DNA of 64,000 nt from an uncultured cyanobacterium (GCA_963803805.1 CAWDOD010000011.1:224001-288000); one strand, 5' to 3'; counted from the stretch's first letter, positions 25,477-38,057 are shown. Numbers and translations: made by a program. The notes: generated by a model not told the origin, from the letters alone.

Positions 25477-26979
25477 TTACCCTTCTAAATCCCCTTCCAT
25501 AACAGTTGCGATCGCAGTTTTAGTATTAGCTTTAAACTCAGCTACATCCACTCGATTGAGGAGATAAATAGCCACAAGCATACCTAAAGCTTGGATCGCA
25601 AATACCAAACCATAGGCAAGCACAGGGTTTTTAAAAACTTGCTTACCAATATCTAAAACCACACCACCCAAAGAAGTAGCTAACCCCCTAGACATAGCTT
25701 GTGCCAAACCCCAAGCCCCGATAAAAGTACCAGCACTTTCTACCGCTGTTAAATCTAACATCAAACTAATACTGCCAATGGTGGCAATCCCGGCGGCTAT
25801 ACCAAACAAAAACACCGCACTTTTGAGAATATTTTCCTCTTGGGTAAAGCCAGCCAAAATAATTAAGCAAAAACAAATAGCAATCAGCAAACAACCAATT
25901 TTGGCAGTTAATTTTTTTCCTAAACGTGGCACGACTAAAAAACCAGTTGTACCATAACCCAACAAAATTCCTAGTCCCCAAAAAGCATTTAACTGAGTTG
26001 TTTCAGCGATAGACATACCAAAAACCTCACCGCCATAGGGTTCTAAAACCACTTCTTGCATAAATAAGCTAATGGTAAAAACTAGTAGGAAGGAAAAGAA
26101 AATTCCTGTTTGACGACTGGCAGTTAAAATTTTCAGGGATTTTCTGAGGGTCATACTATCTTCTCTTTCTGTAAAGGAAGAACGAACAGAGAAACGAGAA
26201 TATTTTTTTTCTACTCCTAAAGTAGCTATCAATGCTAGGGCGAAAACAACAATCGGGACAATAAGAAAAAGTTTGTTGAGGGGATTTTGCAAAACCTCTA
26301 GGGGAGTATCAATCATCTTTTCCCCCACTAACAAGCTACTACCAACATTAGCCCCTAAAACAATGCCAGATTGTTGAACTTTTTTTAAAAGAATGCCACC
26401 ACTGATGCCACCAATGACGATACCAACCATCAACATTGACCAAACTACAGAAACAATTTTCGAGCGGTTATCTTCTTCAGAAATATCTACCAACATGGCG
26501 GTAAAAGGGGTTGAACTAGAACTTAGTGCCAAACCAAAACAGACAAAAAGCAAAGCTAGCAAACCTGTCCACCCCATAGTGGCAGTATTCCAAACCCAAC
26601 CACCATTAGCACGGACTAAACTACCAAGTTGCCACACTACTTGTACTGCGAAAAACACAGCTAAGCCTAATAAAGCGGTTCCCAAGCGTACATAATTGGT
26701 ACGATGTCTACCAAACAACTTCTTAGAATCTGATAGCTGTCCAAACCAAACCCTAGCTGGAGAGACAAATTGCTGCATAGCCACCACTACACCAGTTATG
26801 GTAGCAGGAATACCCAACTCACTAATCATCACCCGGTTAAGAATTGCTAGGGTTAGCACTGACATTAATCCCAGCCCTAGGTTAAACAAACCAAGGCGAA
26901 ACATCGTAATTAAGTCAACTCTCGGAATTTTCCTAGAGTCGAAGTTTGTTTGTAGATTAGGAATATCGCCAGTAGTCAT
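25477..26979 (-). CDS. pucC: PucC/BCD-family MFS transporter
   Basis: RLGLF, LNRVMISELG.P, G..SD, LEPYGG.VFGM, GAWGLAQA motifs. Confidence 0.9.
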   Translation of the reverse strand: MTTGDIPNLQTNFDSRKIPRVDLITMFRLGLFNLGLGLMSVLTLAILNRVMISELGIPATITGVVVAMQQFVSPARVWFGQLSDSKKLFGRHRTNYVRLGTALLGLAVFFAVQVVWQLGSLVRANGGWVWNTATMGWTGLLALLFVCFGLALSSSSTPFTAMLVDISEEDNRSKIVSVVWSMLMVGIVIGGISGGILLKKVQQSGIVLGANVGSSLLVGEKMIDTPLEVLQNPLNKLFLIVPIVVFALALIATLGVEKKYSRFSVRSSFTEREDSMTLRKSLKILTASRQTGIFFSFLLVFTISLFMQEVVLEPYGGEVFGMSIAETTQLNAFWGLGILLGYGTTGFLVVPRLGKKLTAKIGCLLIAICFCLIILAGFTQEENILKSAVFLFGIAAGIATIGSISLMLDLTAVESAGTFIGAWGLAQAMSRGLATSLGGVVLDIGKQVFKNPVLAYGLVFAIQALGMLVAIYLLNRVDVAEFKANTKTAIATVMEGDLEG

Positions 26980-27193
26980 ATTCAGATCCGTTTGAACAGT
27001 TACAGTTTAATTTTTAAGCTAAGGGGGGAAGTAGTAAGTAAAGATATACTGCCCTCCGCCAAGCTAACTTAATAGGGGCTTGCTTAAAAGCTTGGAACAT
27101 CATCCCCATAATTCCGAATCTGTATTCGCCTCCGGCAATTTTAACCGATGATTAGTAAAATGTTCGGCTTTTAGGTAAGCTTTTATCAATTTT

Positions 27194-28690
27194 TCACAAT
27201 GCCAAAGACATCAGACTTGCCACCATCTCCTTATCTGCTAACTCGCGTATCTCATCATTAACCAAAGGATAAAGTAAATCGTATACTTCCGGGTGAGCAT
27301 TTTTTGCTGCCAACAATAAAGGTGTTTCTCCCACACTCCAAGCATTTACATTTGCCCCAAACTCTAACAAAATTTGCACAACTTCTTTGTAACCTTGGTT
27401 AGAAGCAGACATCAAAGCTGTCCAACAATCTTCTTCATAAGCATCAACTTCTGCCCCAGCTTCAAGCAGAATGCGTACAACCTCTTCATGTCCGCCGTTT
27501 GCAGCCTCATGTAAAGGCAGACAGTCAAAACCATTGTTAACATTAGCCCCCGCAGCAACTAACTCACAAACTATTTCTAGCAAGCCTTGTTTTGCAGCAA
27601 AAACTAAAGGTGGTGTCTCGTACCAAACTGAAGCTTGAACTTTCGCCCCTAACCTAAGCAGTGTTTGCACAGCATTTAGGTTTTCACTCATCACCGCAGC
27701 GATAAGCGGTGTGACGTTTTCAGGAGTTTCAGCAAAATATTCTGGTGAGTCGAAACTATCTTCTGTTTCTCTACCTTCTTGCCTTTGCAAATACTCATCT
27801 AACATCACCGCCACAGCAGATAAATCTGAGAAAATATTTTGGGGATTGCCGTGGTGAGGTTGTAGTTGAGTGATGTAGTTGTGATGATGTTCTAATAAAG
27901 TATTGGTAGGACAGCAGGGATGAGAATAACGCCAGAGTCGAGAAAATTCCCTTTCTGCTTCTAATTCTGTGGTGGTAGTAGTCAGAAAAGTCTCATCAGT
28001 AAAGCAAGTCACAAAATCTACTCCCCCGAAGCATTTATCCATTTTCATTACCACCCCACAAACAGACTCATCAGGGGAACCATAGCCATAGCTAATTACA
28101 TCCCGAAAATGAGAAAAGGTCAATTTCCCTAAAAGTTGAAACCCTAAACTTTGCAACTCTTTATTAATTTCCTGAATTGGCTCTATTTCTTGGTGGCAAA
28201 TGGTTTCAAGATCCCTGCCATAATAAGTTCCATGTTCTCCGGTGAAGAGAATTTTCTTTTTACTAGGAGTTGTTGCCACCGGAGCAATTTCAATCTCTCT
28301 ATGCTCCTCATTTTTTGGGGAACCTTTTCCTAAAAGCGCTTTGATAAACTTAGTAAAGCTAGCATAAAAATTGCTTGTCTCTGGCTCAACATTCTTTATT
28401 GCTTCAGTGATAAATTCCTCTAAGTCATCATCTTCTAGTGTCTCAAACAAACAATCTTCAGAATCAAAATCAACAAGTTGAGAAGCTAAATTTACCTGCG
28501 CCCCCGCAGCTACTAATAACTCAATTATGGCCACATTACCTTGACTAGCTGCCAACACTAAAGCAGTTTGTCCCTTTTCATCTATGCTGTTAGCAGGAAC
28601 TTTTAACTCCTCAAGGATATATTTCACTTGTGCGATATTAACTGAGTGGATCGCCTCAAATAAACTTTGAACTTGGGGGTCTATGGCCAT
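27194..28690 (-). CDS. Ankyrin-repeat protein with a central non-ankyrin insert
   Basis: GQTALVLAASQGN at the N-terminus; TPLIAAV, PLHEAANGGH, TALMSASNQG and TPLLLAA repeats at the C-terminus. Confidence 0.88.
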   Translation of the reverse strand: MAIDPQVQSLFEAIHSVNIAQVKYILEELKVPANSIDEKGQTALVLAASQGNVAIIELLVAAGAQVNLASQLVDFDSEDCLFETLEDDDLEEFITEAIKNVEPETSNFYASFTKFIKALLGKGSPKNEEHREIEIAPVATTPSKKKILFTGEHGTYYGRDLETICHQEIEPIQEINKELQSLGFQLLGKLTFSHFRDVISYGYGSPDESVCGVVMKMDKCFGGVDFVTCFTDETFLTTTTTELEAEREFSRLWRYSHPCCPTNTLLEHHHNYITQLQPHHGNPQNIFSDLSAVAVMLDEYLQRQEGRETEDSFDSPEYFAETPENVTPLIAAVMSENLNAVQTLLRLGAKVQASVWYETPPLVFAAKQGLLEIVCELVAAGANVNNGFDCLPLHEAANGGHEEVVRILLEAGAEVDAYEEDCWTALMSASNQGYKEVVQILLEFGANVNAWSVGETPLLLAAKNAHPEVYDLLYPLVNDEIRELADKEMVASLMSLAL

Positions 28691-28793
28691 AATTCCTCGC
28701 TCCCTTTTATAAGATTGAGCATACCCCAATTCTTGACAAGAGTTTCTAATAAAGATGCTTAACAGTTAGAAATTTAGCAGTTTTTAGGTTGGG

Positions 28794-28825
28794 GCGATCG
28801 CAAAGCGTCTCCGTAAGAGAATTGC
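28794..28825. repeat. HIP1-associated small dispersed repeat-like element
   Basis: GCGATCGCAAAGCGTCTCCGTAAGAGAATTGC; related GCGTCTCCGCAAGGAGAAAC at 62075. Confidence 0.55.
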
Positions 28826-28839
28826 CTTTTCTCAATTGA

Positions 28840-29064
28840 CTAAAATTTATTTTGATTGAGCCATTGTAGCAAAATAAACAATAACCGAATCAATGCGATC
28901 GCAATTGTCGCTTCTGGATTTAGCCAGCTTATCAGGGTGATTGTCGTGATGGCGATCGCTTTTAAGAGAGAGGGATTGATTTTAGGTTTCTTTGGTGGTT
29001 GAGGTTTGGTAACACAAGGAACAACAATTATGATTTTGGTTTCGGGTTGCTTGACAGGTTTCAT
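28840..29064 (-). CDS. Small membrane protein, hypothetical (Pro/Lys-rich N-terminus, two hydrophobic helices)
   Basis: 74-aa ORF, divergent from the Roco gene. Confidence 0.65.
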   Translation of the reverse strand: MKPVKQPETKIIIVVPCVTKPQPPKKPKINPSLLKAIAITTITLISWLNPEATIAIALIRLLFILLQWLNQNKF

Positions 29065-29365
29065 GAGTTTGCTTGGTTTGCATTTGATTAATTACAAACC
29101 TACAAACTTTGAAATTGAGGCGAAAGAGCTAGTAAATGCGAGTAGATAAAAGCATTTTCACGCATTGTTTTGCAGAGGCTTATTTATTAGTGACTCGGCT
29201 AAAATTGTCTGTTAGGGCGGGTTTATTTGGTTTAATGTTAATCTCAGGATTAGACTCGCGCCCCTGCTGTTGGAAGATTTTATGCCTGTCATGCCGCTAT
29301 AAATACTCGCGCACTTATACGCATTGTTTCGTTAAATTAGAGAAAGTTTTAGTGGCTACCTACCC

Positions 29366-31762
29366 ATGAGTGGAAATAAAAGACGAGGCGGTTATCTGGC
29401 GACGGCAGAAGGAGTAAAAAAACTTAAAGAAGCAAAGGGTATTAAGAAATATAGTTATCAACAAATTGCAGAGGAAGCGAGGGAGACAGAAGATAAAGTT
29501 AAACGCTTGTTTAATCCTCAATGGGGCGATGGTAAATATAAAGTTGGTGAAGAAGCTGTAGAAGCTATTTGCAATGTATTAGATTTAAAGCCAGAAGAAG
29601 TTGTTAGTGATTGGTATTCATTGGCTCTTATTCAAGAGAAAGAAAAGTTAGTTACCTCGACTCAAATCAAAAATCACGATCCTTCTTATTATCAGGCACT
29701 TAGAAAAATCAGACAAGCTGTTATAGATGAAGTAAAAAGACTAGATCTTTCTATAATGGAATTAACAGAATTACCATCAGAAATTGGACAATTGTCTAAT
29801 CTGACAGAACTTTACCTCAACAATAATTTCCTGAGCAGTCTGCCCCCAGAAATCGGACAACTGGCTAATCTTACAGTACTCTACCTCGGTTCTAATTCCC
29901 TAAGTAATCTGCCCCCAGAAATCGGACAACTAGCTAATCTTAGTAAACTTTACCTCAACTATAATTCCCTAAGCAACCTGCCTCCACAAATCGGACAACT
30001 AGCTAATCTTACAGGGCTTTACCTCAACTATAATTCCCTAAGTAATCTGCCCCCAGAAATCGGACAACTAGCTAATCTGACAGGACTTTACCTCGGTTCT
30101 AATTCCCTAAGTAACCTGCCTCCAGAAATCGGACAACTAGCTAACCTGGCAGTACTCTACCTCAGTTCTAATTCCCTAAACAGTCTGCCTCTAGAAATCG
30201 GACAACTAGATAATCTTAGTACACTTTACCTCGACAATAATTCCCTAAGCAATTTACCCCCAGAAATTATAGCAAAGCAAAACGAACCAGCTATCATAAT
30301 TGATTACTATTTATCTCTGCAACAAAGTAAGCAACAAAAACCGCTCCACGAAGCAAAAATGTTACTGGTTGGGCAGGGAAATGTAGGAAAAACTTGTCTT
30401 AGAGAAAGGTTAATTAGAAATAAATACGATCCGACTCGTAATAAAACTGATGGTATTGATATCGAACCTTGGGAAATAGAAGTAGACGATAAACAATTAC
30501 AAGTAAATATTTGGGACTTCGGTGGACAAGAAATTATGCACTCTACCCACCAATTTTTCTTAACTAAACGCAGTCTTTATATCTTAGTAGTTGATACGAC
30601 TATAGGAGAAGAAGAAAATCGCATTGAATATTGGCTTAAAATAATTAAAAGTTTTGGTAAAAACTCCCCGGTAATTATTGTCGGTAACAAAGCAGATCAA
30701 CATCCTTTAGATATTGATAAAACTGGTTTAAAGAAAAAGTATCCCCAAATTTTAGATTTTAAAGAAATCTCCTGTGAAACAGGAATGGGTATTTCCGATT
30801 TAGCTCAATTTGTCAAGCAGGAAATTAATCAATTAGAACATATTGACGATTTGTTACCTTTGCCTTGGTTTAACATCAAAGAAAAGCTAGAAGAACTTGA
30901 TAAAGACTATATTCCCTACGAACAATATGAGTCTTTGTGTGAACAAGAAGGAATTGAAAAAGAAACTAAACAACGCATCTTAATTGGGCTGTTAAACGAT
31001 TTAGGTGTTGTCCTCAATTTTCAAGATGACCCTAGGTTAGAAGATACCCACGTACTTAACCCTGAATGGGTAACAAATGGAGTTTATAAAATACTCAACG
31101 ATCGTAATTTAATTGTTGATAATCGCGGCATTTTAACCATTCCTACTCTACAAAGAATCCTCAATCAACCTCGCTACCCAGCCAGAAAGCATTTATTTCT
31201 TATTGGCATGATGCGAAAGTTTGAACTTTGTTTTGATATTGAAACAGATCAACAATTTCTCCTGCCTGATATTTTACCCAAAGAAGAACCTTATACAGGA
31301 GAATGGGAAAACACCCTTGCTTTTGAATATCATTACCCCGTTTTACCTGGTAGCATTATCTCTCGCTTTATTATTCGTATGAATCACTATATTCATCAAA
31401 CAACCTATTGGCGTAGTGGGGTAGTTTTAGCAAATGAAGGTAATTTGGCATTAGTTAAAGCAGACAGGGAAGATAAAATCATTAAAATTCGTGTTAGTGG
31501 CAAAGCTAATACGAGACGCAATCTTTTAACAGCAATTCGTTCCCAATTTGACTATATTCACAAAACTATTCCTGGTATTGTGCCAGTAGAAAAAGTCCCT
31601 TTAATGGAACATCCAGAAATCATTTTAGACTATCAAGAATTGTTAGGTTTAGAAGCGATGGGAGAAACAACTGTAGCCATTGGTAAACTTAAACAACGCA
31701 TTCCTTTGAGGCAATTACTCAATGGTATAGAATCTTTAGGCGATCGCCAAGCCCCAAAATAA
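29366..31762 (+). CDS. Roco-family protein: N-terminal HTH-like domain, LRRs, Roc GTPase and COR domain
   Basis: 23-aa LRRs (LPPEIGQLxNLxxLYLxxNSL); P-loop GQGNVGKT; TDGI; IWDFGGQE..HSTHQFFLT; VGNKAD; COR motifs L.DLG, LNPEW.T.GVY, YWRSGVVL. Confidence 0.92.
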   Translation: MSGNKRRGGYLATAEGVKKLKEAKGIKKYSYQQIAEEARETEDKVKRLFNPQWGDGKYKVGEEAVEAICNVLDLKPEEVVSDWYSLALIQEKEKLVTSTQIKNHDPSYYQALRKIRQAVIDEVKRLDLSIMELTELPSEIGQLSNLTELYLNNNFLSSLPPEIGQLANLTVLYLGSNSLSNLPPEIGQLANLSKLYLNYNSLSNLPPQIGQLANLTGLYLNYNSLSNLPPEIGQLANLTGLYLGSNSLSNLPPEIGQLANLAVLYLSSNSLNSLPLEIGQLDNLSTLYLDNNSLSNLPPEIIAKQNEPAIIIDYYLSLQQSKQQKPLHEAKMLLVGQGNVGKTCLRERLIRNKYDPTRNKTDGIDIEPWEIEVDDKQLQVNIWDFGGQEIMHSTHQFFLTKRSLYILVVDTTIGEEENRIEYWLKIIKSFGKNSPVIIVGNKADQHPLDIDKTGLKKKYPQILDFKEISCETGMGISDLAQFVKQEINQLEHIDDLLPLPWFNIKEKLEELDKDYIPYEQYESLCEQEGIEKETKQRILIGLLNDLGVVLNFQDDPRLEDTHVLNPEWVTNGVYKILNDRNLIVDNRGILTIPTLQRILNQPRYPARKHLFLIGMMRKFELCFDIETDQQFLLPDILPKEEPYTGEWENTLAFEYHYPVLPGSIISRFIIRMNHYIHQTTYWRSGVVLANEGNLALVKADREDKIIKIRVSGKANTRRNLLTAIRSQFDYIHKTIPGIVPVEKVPLMEHPEIILDYQELLGLEAMGETTVAIGKLKQRIPLRQLLNGIESLGDRQAPK
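29771..30253 (+). repeat. Seven tandem 69-bp LRR-coding repeats
   Basis: Units start at 29771, 29840, 29909, 29978, 30047, 30116 and 30185 and share a near-invariant CC.CCAGAAATCGGACAACT.GCTAA core. Confidence 0.9.
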
Positions 31763-31857
31763 TTGGTTTTAAGTTATGCAACTCAATATCAAATTGATTT
31801 GAATGATATTTTCTCAAGTAAATTTATAATAATTAAAAGAGATTCAACTAAAAAAAG

Positions 31858-32439
31858 ATGGAAGCGATCGCTATTCCCAAAGGATTCAAAGTAACTACAG
31901 AACAATTCGACCAATTAGCATTCACCGAACAACTGGCACGAATGGAGTTAACCAAAAATGGAGAATTAATTATTATGAGTCCCACTGGTGGAGAAGCTGG
32001 AGAGAAAAACTTTAATTTATATATTGATTTAGGAATTTGGAATCGTCAGACCAAATCAGGAAAAGCTTTTGATTCTTCAACTATTTTTATTTTACCTAAT
32101 GGCGCGAGAAGAAGTCCTGATGTTAGCTGGATTAGATTAGAAAGATGGAATGTACTAACCCGGAAACAAAAGCAAGGTTTTCCTCCTATCGCTCCTGATT
32201 TTGTGATTGAATTAGTAAGTCCAAGCGATCTCAAAAATCAGAGATACGAAGACTTACAGGCAAAAATGCAGGAATATTTAGATAACGGGGTTAAGCTGGG
32301 TTGGTTAATCGAACCCCAAGGGAAAACAGTAGAAATATATAGACTTGGGCAACCAGTAGAAGTTTTAAATAATCCTCAAACTCTCTCAGGAGAAGATATT
32401 TTACCGGGATTTATTCTAGATTTAAGTCAGATTTTTTGA
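31858..32439 (+). CDS. Uma2/DUF820-family PD-(D/E)xK-like endonuclease, copy 1
   Basis: MEL..NGELIIMSP, SPDVSWI, APDFVIELVSPSD, KMQEYLDNGVKLGWLI. Confidence 0.93.
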   Translation: MEAIAIPKGFKVTTEQFDQLAFTEQLARMELTKNGELIIMSPTGGEAGEKNFNLYIDLGIWNRQTKSGKAFDSSTIFILPNGARRSPDVSWIRLERWNVLTRKQKQGFPPIAPDFVIELVSPSDLKNQRYEDLQAKMQEYLDNGVKLGWLIEPQGKTVEIYRLGQPVEVLNNPQTLSGEDILPGFILDLSQIF

Positions 32440-32450
32440 TAGTAAAGAAT

Positions 32451-33032
32451 ATGGAAGCGATCGCTATTCCTAAAGGATTTAAAGTAACTCCAGAACAATT
32501 TGAGCAACTAGCATTCACCGAACAACTGGCACGAATGGAGTTAACTAAAAATGGAGAATTAATTATTATGAGTCCCACTGGAGGAACAGCAGGTAGAAAA
32601 AATAGCCGTTTAACCCAGCAACTAAGAAATTGGGCAGATCAAGACGGTACAGGAGAAGTATTTGATTCTTCTACAGTGTTTGTTTTACCTAATAATGCCA
32701 GAAAAAGTCCTGATGTTAGTTGGATTAAACTAGAGCGATGGCATCAACTGACTCAAAAACAACAAGATGGCTTTCCTCCTATCGCTCCTGATTTTGTGAT
32801 TGAATTAGTAAGTCCAAGTGATCTTAAAAATCAGAGATATGAAGACTTACAGGCAAAAATGCAGGAATATTTAGATAACGGGGTTAAGCTGGGTTGGTTA
32901 ATCGAACCCCAAGGGAAAACAGTAGAAATATATAGACTTGGGCAACCAGTAGAAGTTTTAAATAATCCTCAAACTCTCTCAGGAGAAGATATTTTACCGG
33001 GATTTATTCTAGATTTAAGTCAGATTTTTTGA
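32451..33032 (+). CDS. Uma2-family endonuclease, copy 2
   Basis: Same motifs; start placed at the ATG homologous to copy 1. Confidence 0.93.
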   Translation: MEAIAIPKGFKVTPEQFEQLAFTEQLARMELTKNGELIIMSPTGGTAGRKNSRLTQQLRNWADQDGTGEVFDSSTVFVLPNNARKSPDVSWIKLERWHQLTQKQQDGFPPIAPDFVIELVSPSDLKNQRYEDLQAKMQEYLDNGVKLGWLIEPQGKTVEIYRLGQPVEVLNNPQTLSGEDILPGFILDLSQIF

Positions 33033-33043
33033 TAGTAAAGAAT

Positions 33044-33625
33044 ATGGAAGCGATCGCTATTCCTAAAGGATTTAAAGTAACTCCAGAACAATTTGAGCAA
33101 CTAGCATTCGCTGAACAACTGGCACGAATGGAGTTAACTAAAAATGGAGAATTAATTATTATGAGTCCCACTGGAGGAACAGCAGGTAGAAAAAACTTCA
33201 ACCTATATCTAGATTTAGGAATTTGGAATCGTCAAACAAAGCTAGGAGAAGCTTTTGATTCTTCGACTACTTTTGTTTTACCTAACGGTGCGAGAAGAAG
33301 TCCTGATGTTAGCTGGATTAAACTAGAGCGATGGCATCAACTGACTCAAAAACAACAAGATGGCTTTCCTCCTATCGCTCCTGATTTCGTGATTGAATTA
33401 GTAAGTCCAAGCGATCTCAAAAATCAGAGATACGAAGACTTACAGGCAAAAATGCAGGAATATTTAGATAACGGGGTTAAGCTGGGTTGGTTAATCGAAC
33501 CTCAAGGGAAAACAGTAGAAATATATAGACTTGGGCAACCAGTAGAAGTTTTAAATAATCCTCAAACTCTCTCAGGAGAAGATATTTTACCGGGATTTAT
33601 TCTAGATTTAAGTCAGATTTTTTGA
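33044..33625 (+). CDS. Uma2-family endonuclease, copy 3
   Basis: Same motifs. Confidence 0.93.
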   Translation: MEAIAIPKGFKVTPEQFEQLAFAEQLARMELTKNGELIIMSPTGGTAGRKNFNLYLDLGIWNRQTKLGEAFDSSTTFVLPNGARRSPDVSWIKLERWHQLTQKQQDGFPPIAPDFVIELVSPSDLKNQRYEDLQAKMQEYLDNGVKLGWLIEPQGKTVEIYRLGQPVEVLNNPQTLSGEDILPGFILDLSQIF

Positions 33626-33636
33626 TAGTAAAGAAT

Positions 33637-34218
33637 ATGGAAGCGATCGCCATTCCTAAAGGATTTAAAGTAACTCCAGAACAATTTGAGCAACTAGCAT
33701 TCGCTGAACAACTGGCACGAATGGAGTTAACTAAAAATGGAGAATTAATTATTATGAGTCCCACTGGAGGAACAGCAGGTAGAAAAAATCGCCGTTTGAC
33801 ACAGCGAATTGGCATTTGGACAGATCGAGACGGTACAGGAGAAGCTTTTGATTCTTCGACTACTTTTGTTTTACCTAACGGTGCGAGAAGAAGTCCTGAT
33901 GTTAGCTGGATTAAACTAGAAAGATGGCATCAACTGACTCAAAAACAACAAGATGGCTTTCCTCCTATCGCTCCTGATTTCGTGATTGAATTAGTAAGTC
34001 CAAGCGATCTCAAAAATCAGAGATACGAAGACTTACAGGCAAAAATGCAGGAATATTTAGATAACGGGGTTAAGCTGGGTTGGTTAATCGAACCTCAAGG
34101 GAAAACAGTAGAAATATATAGACTTGGGCAACCAGTAGAAGTTTTAAATAATCCTCAAACTCTCTCAGGAGAAGATATTTTACCGGGATTTATTCTAGAC
34201 TTAAGTGATATTTTTTGA
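33637..34218 (+). CDS. Uma2-family endonuclease, copy 4
   Basis: Same motifs. Confidence 0.93.
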   Translation: MEAIAIPKGFKVTPEQFEQLAFAEQLARMELTKNGELIIMSPTGGTAGRKNRRLTQRIGIWTDRDGTGEAFDSSTTFVLPNGARRSPDVSWIKLERWHQLTQKQQDGFPPIAPDFVIELVSPSDLKNQRYEDLQAKMQEYLDNGVKLGWLIEPQGKTVEIYRLGQPVEVLNNPQTLSGEDILPGFILDLSDIF

Positions 34219-34295
34219 TTATCAAGTATTTCTGGTCTTACAGTCTCCTAAGATAGACTACTAACAGCAACTTGTTAAGAATCTAAGAAAATCTT

Positions 34296-35285
34296 ATGAG
34301 CAGCTCTTTAGATACTTCATCAGGGTCTAATAAGCTTTTGAGTAGTCAAAACATTATCTATGCTGGTATTACTTGGTCAGTATTAGCGCTGGTTTCCTTC
34401 GTCTTATTTGCCCTGATTCCCTCAGAACAAGATAGTCCTACTGTCTATTTAATAGATACCTATATCCTGGAATGTCTGCCTTTTCTTGGGGCAGCACTTT
34501 TGTGTTTTCGTAATGCTAACAGCCCTAAAATTGCTAGTGGACGTAATGTCTGGCTAGGAATTGGTTTAGGGGCCCTTAGTTATTTTACTGCTAACCTGAT
34601 TTTCGGCTGGTGGGAACTGTATTGGGAACTAGATCCTGATGTTTCCCCGGCAGATTTATTTTATGTCGCTTTTTATCTCCTGTTAAGCTGGGGAATGATT
34701 TTAGCTATCATACCCAGGCGCTTGAATTTGGAGAAGTGGCAATGGATTGTTTTGGGTTCCATTGCTGTTATTGGTACAGCCTTAGCTGTTTGGATTGCTA
34801 TTTCCCCTCCCCCTTTAGAGGAGGAGCTAGAATTTTTAGCCAATGAACAACCTGTTACAGAACAAATAGAGGTAGCTACTCCCTCCTCTCAAGCCCTAGC
34901 AGAAACAGAGGCGATCGCAATCCGCAAAGCCCCTCAATGGGTGATGTCTCTAGAAGATACCTTGAGTCCCTTAGCTCGCCCAATTAATTTCTTTTACATT
35001 ATTGGTGACTTAGCTTTAGTAATTATTGCTACAACTTTACTACTAGCCTATTGGGGAGGAGCCTATTCTTGGTCTTGGCGGATGATTGGTGCAGCTACCT
35101 TTGCTTTATATATTGCTGATATGTGGTTTAAGTATGCTGCCACTCTACCAACAGAATACCAAAGTGGCGCTTTACTAGAAGTATTTTTTGTTTTTAGTGG
35201 AGTATTTTTTGCTGTTGGCGCAATATTAGAATACGAAATCTCCCATCGTCCTCGTCAGAGGAGTCGTGGTAGACGTAAGAAATAA
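34296..35285 (+). CDS. Multi-pass membrane protein, hypothetical (resembles membrane sensor-type domains)
   Basis: About 7-8 hydrophobic helices, S.ADLFY motif, basic C-terminus. Confidence 0.78.
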   Translation: MSSSLDTSSGSNKLLSSQNIIYAGITWSVLALVSFVLFALIPSEQDSPTVYLIDTYILECLPFLGAALLCFRNANSPKIASGRNVWLGIGLGALSYFTANLIFGWWELYWELDPDVSPADLFYVAFYLLLSWGMILAIIPRRLNLEKWQWIVLGSIAVIGTALAVWIAISPPPLEEELEFLANEQPVTEQIEVATPSSQALAETEAIAIRKAPQWVMSLEDTLSPLARPINFFYIIGDLALVIIATTLLLAYWGGAYSWSWRMIGAATFALYIADMWFKYAATLPTEYQSGALLEVFFVFSGVFFAVGAILEYEISHRPRQRSRGRRKK

Positions 35286-35289
35286 GGGA

Positions 35290-35356
35290 GTAGGGGTGAT
35301 GGTCATCGCCCCTAAAACATTTGTAAGCAGGGGTAGAGCATCAATGCTCTACCCCT
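35290..35356. repeat. Pair of REP-like palindromes
   Basis: GTAGGGGTGATG-GT-CATCGCCCCTA and AGGGGTAGAGCAT-CA-ATGCTCTACCCCT. Confidence 0.6.
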
Positions 35357-35514
35357 AAATTTTTCTTTACGCAATCTAGTGTGACGCATCTTAATATATA
35401 TTTAGATATCTAGATAAACTAAAAATCAAATAACTCTTGACCCTTTAACCTTTACCCCTTCCCTATAGCTATTGCCCATCAATCAAAAATTGACAGCTAA
35501 AAAAAGTATTAACC

Positions 35515-36903
35515 TTGAGTGAACCAACAACTTCCACCTCCAACGTCTCCCATAGCGAACTGCGTCAACTGGTTCGTACCCAGTTGCAATTATTGCTGGA
35601 AGAAGGAAACTTAGCAGGGGCAAAAACTCTTTTGGTTCCTGTACAACCAGTGGATATTGCCGAAGCTATTGAAGGATTACCAGAAAAGTTGCACGCTATT
35701 GGTTTTCGTTTAATCTCTAAAGAAAAGGCGATCGCCGTTTATGAATATCTTGATTCTTCTGTACAGCAGGCTTTGATTCAAGAGTTTAAGCGTCAGGAGG
35801 TGATTGAGATTGTTGATAAAATGTCCCCTGATGATCGAGCGAGATTATTCGATGAACTGCCAGCTAAAGTTGTGGGACAGTTTTTAGATCAATTAAGTCC
35901 TAAAGAACGCATCGCTACAGCGTTACTCCTGGGTTACGAAGAAGATACGGCGGGGCGAATTATGACCCCGGAGTATATTTCCCTCAAAGAGAATTTAACC
36001 GTTGCCGATGCCTTAGCCAGAATCCGCCGTTTAGCTAATGCTTCAGAAATTATCTACTATCTCTACGTCACCGATGCTTCTCGGCATTTATTAGGGATTG
36101 TTTCGCTGCGAGATTTAGTAACATCTTCTCCTGAAAACAGTTTAGGAGAAATTATGACCTCTGATCTTGTCCGCGCCCCCACAAGTATGGATCAAGAAGA
36201 AGTCGCCCGGTTAATTCAACGCTACGATCTTTTTGCTTTGCCCATTGTGGATAAAGAAGAACGTTTAGTAGGGGTGGTGACAGTAGATGATGTCATCGAT
36301 ATCTTGGAGCAAGAAGCTACAGAAGATATTTATGCTTTAGGTGGAGTTCAAGCCGATGGAGATAACTATTTTCAAACCAACTTAGTAACCGTCGCCCGTA
36401 AGCGGGTAGTTTGGTTATTTATTCTTCTTTTAACTAATACCGTTACCGGAACTATTATTCGTTCCCAAGAAGATATTTTGCAACAAGTCGTCACCTTAGC
36501 AGCTTTCATCCCCCTCTTAACTGGTACAGGAGGAAACGTGGGCGCACAATCTTCTACCGTAGTGATTAGAGGCTTAAACACCGACGAAATGAATGATTTG
36601 GGAGCAAGGCAAGTCATCTTCCGAGAAGCCCTGGCAGGAGCCTTATTGGGGAGCATATTGGGAACAGTCGCTACCTTCTGGGCATATTGGTTACAAGGAA
36701 ACTTCTCCGTCGCTATTTCTGTGGGCATCAGCTTAGTTGCGATCGCAATTTTAGCTTCTGTAGCCGGTTCTGCTTTACCCTTTTTATTCCGTTATTTAAA
36801 ATTAGATCCTGCCCTCATGTCTGCACCATTTATCACCACAGCCGTAGACGTTTTGGGGGTACTAATTTACTTTAATATTGCCCGTACAGTTTTGGGACTA
36901 TGA
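35515..36903 (+). CDS. mgtE: Magnesium transporter MgtE
   Basis: N-domain, CBS pair (TAGRIMT, GVVTVDD), TM motifs GGNVGAQS and DPALMSAPFITT..D. Confidence 0.95.
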   Translation: MSEPTTSTSNVSHSELRQLVRTQLQLLLEEGNLAGAKTLLVPVQPVDIAEAIEGLPEKLHAIGFRLISKEKAIAVYEYLDSSVQQALIQEFKRQEVIEIVDKMSPDDRARLFDELPAKVVGQFLDQLSPKERIATALLLGYEEDTAGRIMTPEYISLKENLTVADALARIRRLANASEIIYYLYVTDASRHLLGIVSLRDLVTSSPENSLGEIMTSDLVRAPTSMDQEEVARLIQRYDLFALPIVDKEERLVGVVTVDDVIDILEQEATEDIYALGGVQADGDNYFQTNLVTVARKRVVWLFILLLTNTVTGTIIRSQEDILQQVVTLAAFIPLLTGTGGNVGAQSSTVVIRGLNTDEMNDLGARQVIFREALAGALLGSILGTVATFWAYWLQGNFSVAISVGISLVAIAILASVAGSALPFLFRYLKLDPALMSAPFITTAVDVLGVLIYFNIARTVLGL

Positions 36904-37205: not shown

Positions 37206-38057
37206 ATGAAGGGAACAATCAAGAAATTTTTATTAGGTGCTTCAGTTGTAGTAGGGGCAAGTGCGATCGCAGTTAACCCGTCTTTTGCTGGTAGTTTTAG
37301 TTCCAGCGGCCCAACAACAGTATATGAGTCTTTTGTTGATACTGACGGCAAGACCAAAACTAGAAAAGTAACAGGGGCAGACTTATCAACTATTTTAAGT
37401 GGTGACAGCAGCGCTCCTGGTGGTAACGTTGAGCTTTATGACCAGACAGATGGTTTAACCTTAGAGCAGTTCAAAGAAATCGGCTCAGCTACATTAACAG
37501 CCGATCTTGATGGTAAGATTGTTAACTTTAATAGTCTTACCTACGAAGACTGGTTTGGTACAGGCAGTGGTATCAACGAGAATTATGGGGCGAATAACTT
37601 TGCTAACCAATGGTTTGGTGAGGCTATGGCCAAATACGGCTCAGGCTACAATAGTATACAAAAAGAAGTGCTTTACGGTAAATTAAAATCTAATGGTTTC
37701 CAACGCTTCAGCGACCCTAATTTGGCTTATGTAGGTAAAGATGGGAATACTGTTACTTTCGGTTTAGCTGGCCATAGCAATGCAGGAAATGTACACCCTT
37801 TACTTCAGGGTATGTATGCTAGCGAAGTAGTTAAAGTAAGCTACAAAGGCAAAACAGAATTATTCTATAGCTTTGACAAACCTACAGACTCTGGGCAGTA
37901 CGAAGTTTCTGATGGGACATCCCACGACGGTAACTTTGAATTCTCTTTCCAGTGGGGCGAAGATGATGCAGAGAAAGTACCTGAACCCTCCGCAATTTTA
38001 GGTCTAATCGCTTTGAGTGGTGTTGTAGCAACTAAGCGTAAGCACAATAAAGCTTAA
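37206..38057 (+). CDS. PEP-CTERM exported surface protein
   Basis: Signal peptide; C-terminal VPEPSAILGL, TM segment and basic tail (KRKHNK). Confidence 0.9.
   Translation: MKGTIKKFLLGASVVVGASAIAVNPSFAGSFSSSGPTTVYESFVDTDGKTKTRKVTGADLSTILSGDSSAPGGNVELYDQTDGLTLEQFKEIGSATLTADLDGKIVNFNSLTYEDWFGTGSGINENYGANNFANQWFGEAMAKYGSGYNSIQKEVLYGKLKSNGFQRFSDPNLAYVGKDGNTVTFGLAGHSNAGNVHPLLQGMYASEVVKVSYKGKTELFYSFDKPTDSGQYEVSDGTSHDGNFEFSFQWGEDDAEKVPEPSAILGLIALSGVVATKRKHNKA

Follow-up and report, generated by a model that had tools for sequence, protein, structure and literature searches.

The window, a 64,000-nucleotide stretch of DNA from an uncultured cyanobacterium, contains a gene for a protein of the Roco family. 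A small gene lies head-to-head with it on one side and four tandem Uma2 genes follow it on the other (Table 1).

Table 1. Features at the locus; positions are counted from the first nucleotide of the window.
Feature	Position	Strand	Remarks
Ankyrin-repeat gene, downstream of the 74-aa ORF	27194..28729	-	
74-aa ORF, head-to-head with Roco gene	28840..29064	-	conserved partner, without library family
Divergent promoter region	29065..29365	.	common to 74-aa ORF and Roco gene
Second copy of conserved box	29150..29172	+	20.3 bits
Short dispersed repeat	29190..29299	.	inserted in promoter region, outside module
Conserved 23-bp box, candidate operator	29309..29338	+	two hexamer direct repeats 10 bp apart
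HTH-LRR-Roc-COR (Roco) gene	29366..31762	+	798 aa, without C-terminal effector
Putative XRE/Cro-like HTH head	29366..29620	+	residues 1-85 of Roco protein
LRR region	29732..30265	+	six regular 23-aa repeats and caps
Roc GTPase (331-487), COR-A (498-637), COR-B (648-787)	30356..31726	+	
Best sigma-70-like site of region	31803..31830	+	Roco-Uma2 gap; 10/12, tied with one intragenic site
Four-copy tandem Uma2 (PF05685) cassette	31858..34218	+	starts 31858, 32451, 33044, 33637

Pfam places Roc (match at residues 331-444, E 5.5e-32) before COR-A and COR-B, all over cut-off, which is the arrangement that marks members of the Roco family; the LRRs are also matched. The protein ends 11 residues after COR-B and Pfam detects no effector domain; the absence of a C-terminal effector had been described in the first-pass annotation of this DNA. 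The same annotation reported an intact G-domain, and we find motifs G1 (residue 336), G2 (T361), G3 (383), G4 (440), and G5 (469) all intact. Across 32 homologues, the residues of the P-loop, switch II, and G4 do not vary. The closest Foldseek match is the LRR-Roc-COR structure 6hlu from C. tepidum (E 7.9e-35), which has the same fold but, in the part of its description covered here (PMC11052575), no HTH head. The number of LRRs differs among homologues. This agrees with the variable sensor proposed earlier and with the variable N-terminal LRRs of AP-GTPase systems; by contrast, the variable C-terminal effector of those systems is absent from the window's Roco. Most close homologues end within about 30 residues of COR-B, and TIR is annotated at the C-terminus in five of 33 and absent in 28. 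In an unrooted Roc-COR tree, TIR is scattered inside the head-bearing clade. NCBIfam matches to type III/IV effectors were rejected; these are LRR and ankyrin matches far under the cut-off.

The head is probably a DNA-binding XRE/Cro-like HTH, as had been suggested. It has a weak match to HTH_31 under the Pfam cut-off (residues 27-79, E 0.007), the AlphaFold model has helices at this position, and two homologues pass Pfam cut-offs (P0075 for HTH_26, P0090 for HTH_3). Look-alikes of HTH_3 and HTH_26 in the ESM Atlas at 0.90 are a lead only, and a search of the head sequence against the PDB gave no match. The conserved box and the head-specific repeats described below bear on DNA binding indirectly. 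The head is a mobile module that also occurs in fusions with NACHT, NB-ARC, nSTAND1, AAA_35, HerA, and VMAP proteins.

The small divergent gene and its NTPase partners

The 74-aa ORF lies just outside the part of the window considered in the first-pass annotation and was missed there. The N-terminal half of its product is basic and of low complexity. It is followed by hydrophobic helices at residues 31-48 and 50-72, joined by a W-L-N-P-E kink, and the protein is predicted to form a membrane hairpin. The gene is under purifying selection for its coding sequence, with dN/dS of 0.22 (28 pairs) and 0.17 (45 pairs); an antisense control, for the first group of 28 pairs only, gave 0.76. The family comprises 227 clusters with members mostly of 56-92 aa, is present in 31 of 401 genomes, and has 'hypothetical protein' as the only name among the matches listed. 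No family match was obtained in PHROGs, Pfam, PADLOC, plasmid, or phage searches or in the ESM Atlas, the model had no PDB match at E 0.001 (Foldseek), and EACC1 was absent from the Pfam matches of 50 family members. PADLOC, PHROG, plasmid, and phage matches are lacking for the small protein, so the proposed defence role of the gene pair is one by analogy. A four-copy complex prediction of the small protein gave no verdict, and Rfam had no match within 28600-32000.

The small ORF is also head-to-head with its neighbour at seven other Roco loci (one a COR-only fragment) and at two NACHT loci with the same head. In a blind search, all 13 new matches in the phylum face NACHT or NB-ARC genes. A second blind set (n = 17) gave 12 loci facing an NTPase, two facing a head with no NTPase detected, one unclear, and two facing neither. 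In all, the small ORF faces an NTPase gene of the Roco, NACHT, NB-ARC, or nSTAND1 type at 34 of 44 informative loci, in 10 families; many of the matches come from one genus (g33), and the background is about 14 such genes among 4191 in the window's genome (G000). In the opposite direction linkage is looser, with the small ORF beside only one of 14 NACHT or Roco genes of that genome. The small gene decays when the partner is lost, as five of seven partnerless copies are truncated remnants. In the literature covered, we found no description of this pairing, which does not establish its absence from print.

The partner NTPases mostly carry an HTH-like head. These heads (XRE-like, sigma70-r4-like, or unclassified) are unrelated, as are the NTPases themselves, and Pfam detects no enzymatic effector in the partners and no caspase in those scanned. 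This combination fits control through DNA better than protein contact. Among the Roco homologues, a small ORF or its remnant is present at nine of 11 effector-less loci, including the window, versus none of three TIR-bearing loci (Fisher p 0.027, with kin that are not independent). Exceptions are L285, which is effector-less yet has no small ORF, and L121, which has none in 432 bp. An indirect hint outside these counts is that 11 of 28 TIR-less versus zero of five TIR-bearing Roco proteins agree with a small-protein record in the length of the longest contig.

Homologous loci occupy changing chromosomal sites and are frequently broken. In the sister species G001, the small ORF and the box are intact beside an in-frame head-COR-B mini-protein, and P0052 is a second head-COR-B fusion with another junction; COR-B is described as the dimer interface in the part of PMC11052575 covered here. 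Toxin-antitoxin-like genes, read from ORF translations, are frequent around these loci.

Repeats in the divergent promoter region

The 23-bp box ends 34 bp upstream of the Roco start, and a -10-like TANNNT hexamer, identified by eye, comes after it (29333-29338). Outside the training set, no site in the 5.3-Mb genome scores higher than the second copy of the box. The dispersed repeat in this region has four further partial copies in G000 and many in G001.

Direct repeats of 10-11 bp are often found in the shared promoter region of related cassettes, and the repeated unit differs by head family. Of 21 cassettes with other heads, 10 have repeats with period 10/11 and none has them at the control periods of 8/13; the rate of period-10/11 repeats among 2229 upstream regions of G000 is 1.8%. 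In the window's own head family, none of 10 reaches the threshold of the generic periodicity test. One hexamer occurs 70 times in this family versus 23.7 in shuffled sequences; this hexamer was picked after the sequences, which are related, had been inspected. Repeats and head may simply be co-inherited. We do not claim a mirrored box before the small gene because shuffle scores are weak, with one of eight loci beating all 200 shuffles and the window at 43/200.

Explanations for the gene pair and related systems

We read the locus as a variant, not described before in the literature covered, of the known NLR/AP-GTPase conflict systems. In the explanation we prefer, to which we give an even chance, the unit is two divergent genes, one for an HTH-headed NTPase sensor and one for a small hydrophobic hairpin protein, and the NTPase is a nucleotide-switched, AfsR-like transcription factor that controls a small membrane effector. 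The pair probably acts in cyanobacterial defence or stress response, with the switch turning the small gene on or off. The XRE-like head would bind the direct repeats beside the -10 box, and the Roc-COR dimer-monomer cycle would set whether two heads stay joined on the two repeats. The switch would flip when the variable LRRs sense a ligand, for which an invader molecule or a stress molecule is the likeliest candidate. The small gene would then be derepressed or activated; we favour repression by the resting dimer and release on GTP loading. The small protein would insert into the membrane as an effector, replacing the TIR carried in cis by some clade members. GTP hydrolysis and the dimer-monomer switch are assumed from the C. 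tepidum Roco, reported to be a dimer without nucleotide and a monomer with GTP (PMC11052575).

We tentatively extend this to a more specific picture that may well prove wrong, in which an LRRK2-like Roco serves as a transcription factor. GTP-driven monomerisation would free the dimeric HTH from tandem operators and induce a membrane-disrupting effector. The same effector family would also answer to NACHT, NB-ARC, and nSTAND1 sensors, each with a head and operator of its own, amounting to a cyanobacterial NLR-like immunity that signals via transcription of a death hairpin and has no fused enzyme.

Comparisons with published systems refer to the parts of the sources covered here. AfsR, a STAND NTPase and large SARP of Streptomyces that acts on afsS (PMC10936776), likewise combines a DNA-binding head, a nucleotide switch, and a repeat sensor, with direct repeats one helical turn apart by the -10 element, and nucleotide binding controls its output. 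However, AfsR is an ATPase with an OmpR-type ODB and BTA head and it activates, whereas the window's Roco is a GTPase that bears an XRE-like head and its proposed target is hydrophobic. The ODB and BTA head with NB-ARC of large SARPs has no Pfam match in the Roco, so the analogy is one of mechanism and not of homology. MalT is presumably a further comparison.

The AP-GTPase systems (Kaur et al., 2021, PMC8195603) have in common with the window an LRR sensor and a Roc-COR switch, occurrence in cyanobacteria, and close relatives with TIR; the differences here are the missing effector, the XRE-like head, and the divergent small gene. The string 'HTH+LRR-repeats' has no occurrence in file 6 of that source. 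This file does list an 806-aa Xenococcus protein as LRR-repeats+AP-GTPase+COR, without labels on its neighbours; the protein agrees with P0013 in name and length. In the NLR-related NACHT proteins of bacteria (Kibby et al., bioRxiv 10.1101/2022.07.19.500537), HTH is among the N-terminal 'adaptor' domains, with a possible transcriptional response. They share a cyanobacterial expansion and the NCH, NCAB, and HEAT C-termini seen in partners here, but the part covered names no target gene or operator, and the window's NTPase is a Roc-COR GTPase and not a STAND ATPase. Pairs of Bell-domain/BASS and NLR genes (Dyrka et al., bioRxiv 10.1101/2020.01.06.895854) also place a small, predicted membrane-acting effector beside an NLR-like gene in cyanobacteria. 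However, Bell proteins are five-helix bundles of 120-140 aa that share an amyloid motif with the NLR, and 91% of pairs are collinear, whereas members of the small-gene family are mostly 56-92 aa (74 aa in the window) with two helices and lie head-to-head with an NTPase that starts with an HTH. In Bell/BASS pairs the motif is common to the C-terminus of the effector and the N-terminus of the NLR; inspection by eye showed no such motif here. EACC1 systems pair a single-TM EACC1 gene with a caspase-fused gene that it precedes, an arrangement not found at the partners scanned.

We consider it unlikely that the small protein is instead a direct partner of the NTPase, as membrane anchor, co-sensor, or inhibitor, with both genes co-regulated by their common divergent promoter and the head only autoregulating the pair. 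Strict linkage and decay without the partner fit any functional coupling, and EACC1 systems offer an earlier example in which a variable sensor is coupled with a small membrane component (PMC7159879, in the part covered). At 16 loci examined, the head is present but the small ORF is not; several of these loci have similar repeats, whose role may thus be confined to autoregulation. Against this, a single short family would need to contact Roc-COR, NACHT, NB-ARC, and nSTAND1 proteins that carry unrelated heads, and the small ORF of G001 is intact after loss of LRR, Roc, and COR-A.

Somewhat less probable still is a selfish toxin-repressor module of small gene, repeats, and head. The head, fused to various NTPases, would keep the toxin off whatever their nucleotide state, and the NTPase would not be its switch. 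The mobility of the head across NTPase types, the head-only or deleted partners that persist next to intact small ORFs (G001, L371), and the toxin-antitoxin-like genes nearby would fit. However, an NTPase and not a stand-alone HTH is faced at the 34 of 44 loci, with at least three unrelated head types, and such repeated, independent pairing with NTPase sensors is unexpected for a passenger.

That the same switch acts in development or stress physiology, where the small protein would be a membrane regulator and have no role against invaders, seems to us very unlikely. It is modelled on AfsR, which activates afsS by way of direct repeats of 11 bp that lie at the -35 region (PMC10936776), and the small protein has no match in defence libraries. 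By contrast, conflict genes typically show the patchy distribution, shifting sites, frequent breakage, and variation in LRR number seen here, and clade members carry TIR.

With the nucleotide-switched transcription factor, the locus offers a readout, as the candidate operator and expression of the target gene should report the nucleotide state of Roc-COR. Bacterial Roco proteins are the structural models for LRRK2, and the literature covered gives no cellular output for them. The small gene is also a candidate target for the HTH heads of cyanobacterial NACHT proteins, which Kibby et al. class only as possible transcriptional adaptors.

The Uma2 cassette

The first-pass annotation proposed that the Roco is sensor and switch of a co-transcribed anti-phage system with the four downstream Uma2 nucleases as effectors. 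The array does begin 95 bp downstream on the same strand, the Roco itself lacks an effector, Uma2 matches the candidate defence model PDC-S03 (E 2e-12), and the closest relatives found here of both genes are in family f34. A same-strand Uma2 starts within 200 bp downstream of 27 of 4135 genes (0.65%); with 62 Uma2 matches in 5.3 Mb, such a neighbour is uncommon per gene, yet there are dozens of cases per genome. The proposal itself came with the caveat that the adjacency could be chance. Uma2 density is 19 per Mb within 2.1 kb of Roco genes versus 11 further out; we rejected this enrichment (nine near versus 14 far, p 0.15), and several of the near cases are seemingly orthologous Nostoc loci.

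The survey covered 181 other Roco genes, counted as unique ends with a flank of 700 bp or more. A same-strand Uma2 starts within 500 bp downstream of none of them and at 622 bp in one. Uma2 is also absent downstream of 15 head-bearing or same-clade loci (one with only 108 bp of flank), and Roc-COR, head, and small ORF are all absent within about 1.5 kb of 30 loci of the array's Uma2 subfamily. Linkage thus fails in both directions, and the orthologous locus of G001 lacks Uma2. Uma2 is mentioned zero times in the AP-GTPase neighbourhood file of PMC8195603 and is labelled in its other files covered. We therefore judge the Roco-Uma2 system highly improbable and not worth pursuing; the cassette is very probably an unrelated neighbour. 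The immune-like context of the locus stands without Uma2 as effector, because LRR-AP-GTPase-COR proteins have already been proposed as counter-invader systems (PMC8195603). The promoter-like site in the gap hints that Uma2 is transcribed separately; the scan, by consensus match only, found 22 sites with 16.2 expected by shuffling.

No contig spans the array in one DNA run, possibly the source sample and not independent, and one bridges the Roco-Uma2 junction (31516-31883). The ankyrin-repeat gene on the other side has a fragment at the same place in G001 only, and so lies outside the wider module.

Cyanobacterial Uma2 genes (COG4636) are known as tandem paralogue cassettes that are rarely tied to partners (Makarova et al., 2009, PMC2701414, in the part covered), and the window's array is an ordinary member, set apart by four copies with a swapped internal segment. 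Each gene encodes 193 aa and has a full-length PF05685 match (158-162 bits); the tandem units are 593 bp long, and their mean column identity is 94%. The diversification noted earlier is real but local, with most of the differences at residues 46-70. The array is the largest Uma2 cluster in its genome, where the eight others are pairs.

The Roco gene and its Uma2 neighbours

The first-pass annotation described an HTH-LRR-Roc-COR gene followed by a Uma2 array, and this arrangement was confirmed by the Pfam domains, the intact G1–G5 motifs and four Uma2 genes of 193 aa each, organized as 593-bp units, that start 95 bp after the Roco gene. The Roco protein has six regular LRR units and a weak Pfam match to HTH_31 at its N-terminus. 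The best structural match of its AlphaFold model (mean pLDDT 73.8) is the C. tepidum Roco. The window corresponds to positions 224001–288000 of contig C11 in the source genome (G000), and its gene content is cyanobacterial.

Features of the Roco locus and its surroundings, in window coordinates
Feature	Position	Strand	Description
Ankyrin-repeat gene	27194–28729		unannotated central domain; adjoins small ORF
Small ORF	28840–29064	−	74 aa; head-to-head with Roco gene
Divergent promoter region	29065–29365		
Second box copy	29150–29172		23 bp
Dispersed repeat	29190–29299		~110 bp; many copies in G001, four partial in G000
Box	29309–29331		23 bp; candidate operator
Roco gene	29366–31762	+	798 aa; LRRs, Roc, COR-A and COR-B above Pfam cut-offs
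Uma2 array	31858–34218		four copies; mosaic
Secreted-looking protein	37206–38057		conserved in G001 near an mgtE-like gene

The Uma2 copies differ chiefly at residues 46–70, where copies 1 and 3 share one allele type and copies 2 and 4 the other. Outside this segment the few informative sites mostly pair copy 1 with 2 and copy 3 with 4, and the C-terminal halves are only 2–8 nucleotides apart. The two allele types of the segment alternate on a homogenised backbone. The conflicting groupings suggest recombination among the copies, and the sequences suggest gene conversion that swaps a specificity segment. The source genome (G000) contains 62 Uma2 matches and 3 Roco genes. In a second Roco gene (G000:C6:111987–114483) the LRR and Roc-COR parts fall into overlapping ORFs, owing to a frameshift or an assembly error.

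The same annotation proposed that the Roco protein and the Uma2 nucleases may form one system. To assess this, Roco loci were drawn from relatives and from collections of genomes and metagenomes, taking the best 80 of about 600 matches in each collection, and were screened with a profile of the G000 Uma2 proteins that recovers 60 ORFs in that genome. Excluding duplicates, the genes of G000 and ends running off the locus left 208 unique C-termini, 181 with at least 700 bp of downstream flank. In this sample, none of the 181 Roco ends was followed by a same-strand Uma2 start within 500 bp (one lay at 622 bp), 13 ends had a Uma2 within 2.1 kb in mixed orientations, and Uma2 density near and far from Roco did not differ significantly (p = 0.15). 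The subfamily of the window's array is present in 46 of 61 genomes of its family (f34), frequently in pairs; none of 30 fetched loci had a Roc-COR, a head or a small ORF near it. The orthologous locus in the sister-species genome (G001), at a different chromosomal site, has no Uma2; its Roco gene is deleted in frame and directly followed by a convergent gene. Uma2 is not mentioned in the accessible part of a published AP-GTPase neighbourhood table (PMC8195603), and cyanobacteria are described as habitually carrying Uma2 paralogue cassettes (PMC2701414), with lineage-specific expansion (PMC9403480). Together, the two-way linkage survey and the Uma2-free G001 locus do not support the proposed system, and the adjacency is very probably a chance neighbourhood.

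The genes flanking the region are at most 2 kb apart in G001, in a different orientation (window 25477–36903 against L040, a locus on G001:C9). In G001 the ankyrin-small ORF-Roco block lies on a different contig from them, which means that it has been relocated or rearranged. The ankyrin gene occurs at this site only in G000, with a fragment in G001. The convergent gene beyond the deleted Roco reads like a ferrochelatase, and the secreted-looking protein has a PEP-CTERM-like C-terminal tail.

A small divergent ORF opposite NTPase genes

The Roco–Uma2 adjacency led us to a conserved two-gene module that is apparently undescribed and has a testable mechanism. Among head-bearing loci, a homologue of the window's small ORF, 67–92 aa long and pointing away from the Roco start, is present at seven Roco loci besides the window's; an eighth has a remnant of it, and it also precedes two NACHT genes that share the head. 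Codon analysis gave a dN/dS of 0.22 for one set of 28 pairs and of 0.17 for a second set of 45 distant pairs, against 0.76 in the one antisense control, which was for the first set; third codon positions vary most. The protein model (pLDDT 69) consists of a pair of helices with a proline kink, and the best 19-residue hydropathy is 1.8–2.2 in 18 of 20 members. Two successive protein searches yielded 69 and 227 clusters. Every named entry is cyanobacterial and annotated as a hypothetical protein, except for one that UniRef labels 'Transposase'. No fitting family was found in Pfam, PHROGs or PADLOC.

A blind search of 401 genomes of the phylum gave 13 new small-ORF matches, all opposite a STAND NTPase gene (12 NACHT, 1 NB-ARC). 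A wider profile matched 31 of 401 genomes of the order; of 17 additional loci retrieved, 12 lie opposite an NTPase, two opposite a head with no detected NTPase and one opposite an unclassified protein, and two have nothing opposite. The blind sets cover several families. Pooling gave 46 matches outside G000, or 44 after two with the upstream side off the contig were dropped. An NTPase gene or fragment lies opposite in 34 of the 44 (7 Roco, 23 NACHT, 3 NB-ARC, 1 nSTAND1; in two cases a small gene intervenes), a count that overstates independence because nine matches are seeds found beside heads and one genus supplies many of the others. Three more are head-only or unclear, and seven are partnerless (five truncated remnants, one degenerate, one weak match). 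The converse linkage fails: the small ORF is missing at 16 loci with related heads and occurs once among the 14 NACHT and Roco genes of G000. One remnant (L330:5021–5077; compare locus L273) lies at a chromosomal site, among ABC transporter and hydrolase genes, that holds the whole cassette in another genome, which shows loss in place. In one genus the surroundings of the cassette of NACHT and small gene repeatedly include transposase-like genes and a 95-aa ORF that is often duplicated (L315:210–897, L319:2936–3223, L321:3121–3790).

With residues 1–125 as query, 44 proteins were retrieved (33 Roco and 11 NACHT or HEAT-repeat types); residues 1–89 retrieved 53 representatives, with fusions to NACHT, NB-ARC, nSTAND1, AAA_35, HerA and VMAP. 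Two head homologues pass Pfam HTH cut-offs. Judged from these sequences, the head is a mobile XRE/Cro-like module. TIR occurs on five of the 33 Roco relatives, and the majority of the others stop just past COR-B. This clade is represented by at least five Roco paralogues in a single genome (G265, loci L275–L279), the head being seen on four; some have TIR and some the small ORF.

Conserved elements in the divergent promoter region

From the end of the box to the Roco start, the distance is 30–38 bp in six of the seven training loci (window, L029, L272, L273, L277, L284 and L275) and 51 bp at L121. The box is followed by a TANNNT hexamer and contains two hexamers 10 bp apart. With the box matrix, the top-scoring site in G000 is the window's box, a circular result because the matrix was trained on these instances; the second site of the same region comes next, and that rank is not circular. 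The hexamer, chosen after inspection, is threefold enriched in ten same-head regions and depleted in 21 other-head regions. These 21 have repeats of their own, the unit differing with head family, and 10 of them pass a period-10/11 threshold, compared with 1.8% of 2229 background regions; none passes at control periods 8 and 13. None of the ten regions of the window's head family passes the generic periodicity test, so the operator evidence for this family is conservation, not periodicity.

At L273:4215–4606 there are two copies of the box, and a heptamer tandem repeat lies between them. Related heads that lack the small ORF (L264–L267, L290, L291) have upstream 10-bp-spaced repeats like the window's unit, and head-operator pairing may thus be general for cyanobacterial HTH-NTPases.

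A possible transcriptional switch

Transcriptional coupling is the simplest reading because the partners of the small ORF have only a DNA-binding-like head and a nucleotide switch in common, and a Pfam scan detected no enzymatic effector among them. In the nucleotide-free state CtRoco is dimeric, with COR-B as the interface, and it is monomeric when GTP is bound (PMC11052575). A Roco dimer would put two heads on two repeats, and LRR sensing would lead to GTP loading and release of the heads. The small protein, from its shape and context, may damage membranes. We give this transcriptional switch an even chance and consider its full immune version doubtful.

In G001 the box and the small ORF persist together with a head-COR-B fusion of 221 aa, and protein P0052 is a second such fusion. 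These mini-proteins (L029:9610–10275; P0052) are in-frame, have different junctions and lack LRR, Roc and COR-A. It is possible that they are constitutive dimeric repressors. Their retention is expected if repression must be kept, although either fusion could be a product of decay or of misassembly. The small ORF or a remnant is present at nine of 11 effector-less loci and none of three TIR-bearing ones, which suggests that it replaces TIR, the loci being few and kin not independent.

Published work presents LRR-AP-GTPase-COR proteins as systems against invaders, among which at least 24 C-terminal effectors occur (PMC8195603). The window's protein is a Roco but lacks such an effector. The available part of Kaur (2020) names AP-GTPase-COR only as an effector of vWA systems. 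We found no published description of the small ORF-NTPase pairing in the open-access papers and preprint texts searched. Bell/BASS pairs (bioRxiv 10.1101/2020.01.06.895854) and EACC1 pairs (PMC7159879), as far as the accessible text describes them, differ in size, fold, orientation and partner. HTH heads of NACHT proteins have been listed as possible transcriptional adaptors (Kibby, bioRxiv 10.1101/2022.07.19.500537). AfsR, in the part of its description available (PMC10936776), combines a head, a nucleotide switch and repeats spaced by a helical turn according to the same logic, without homology.
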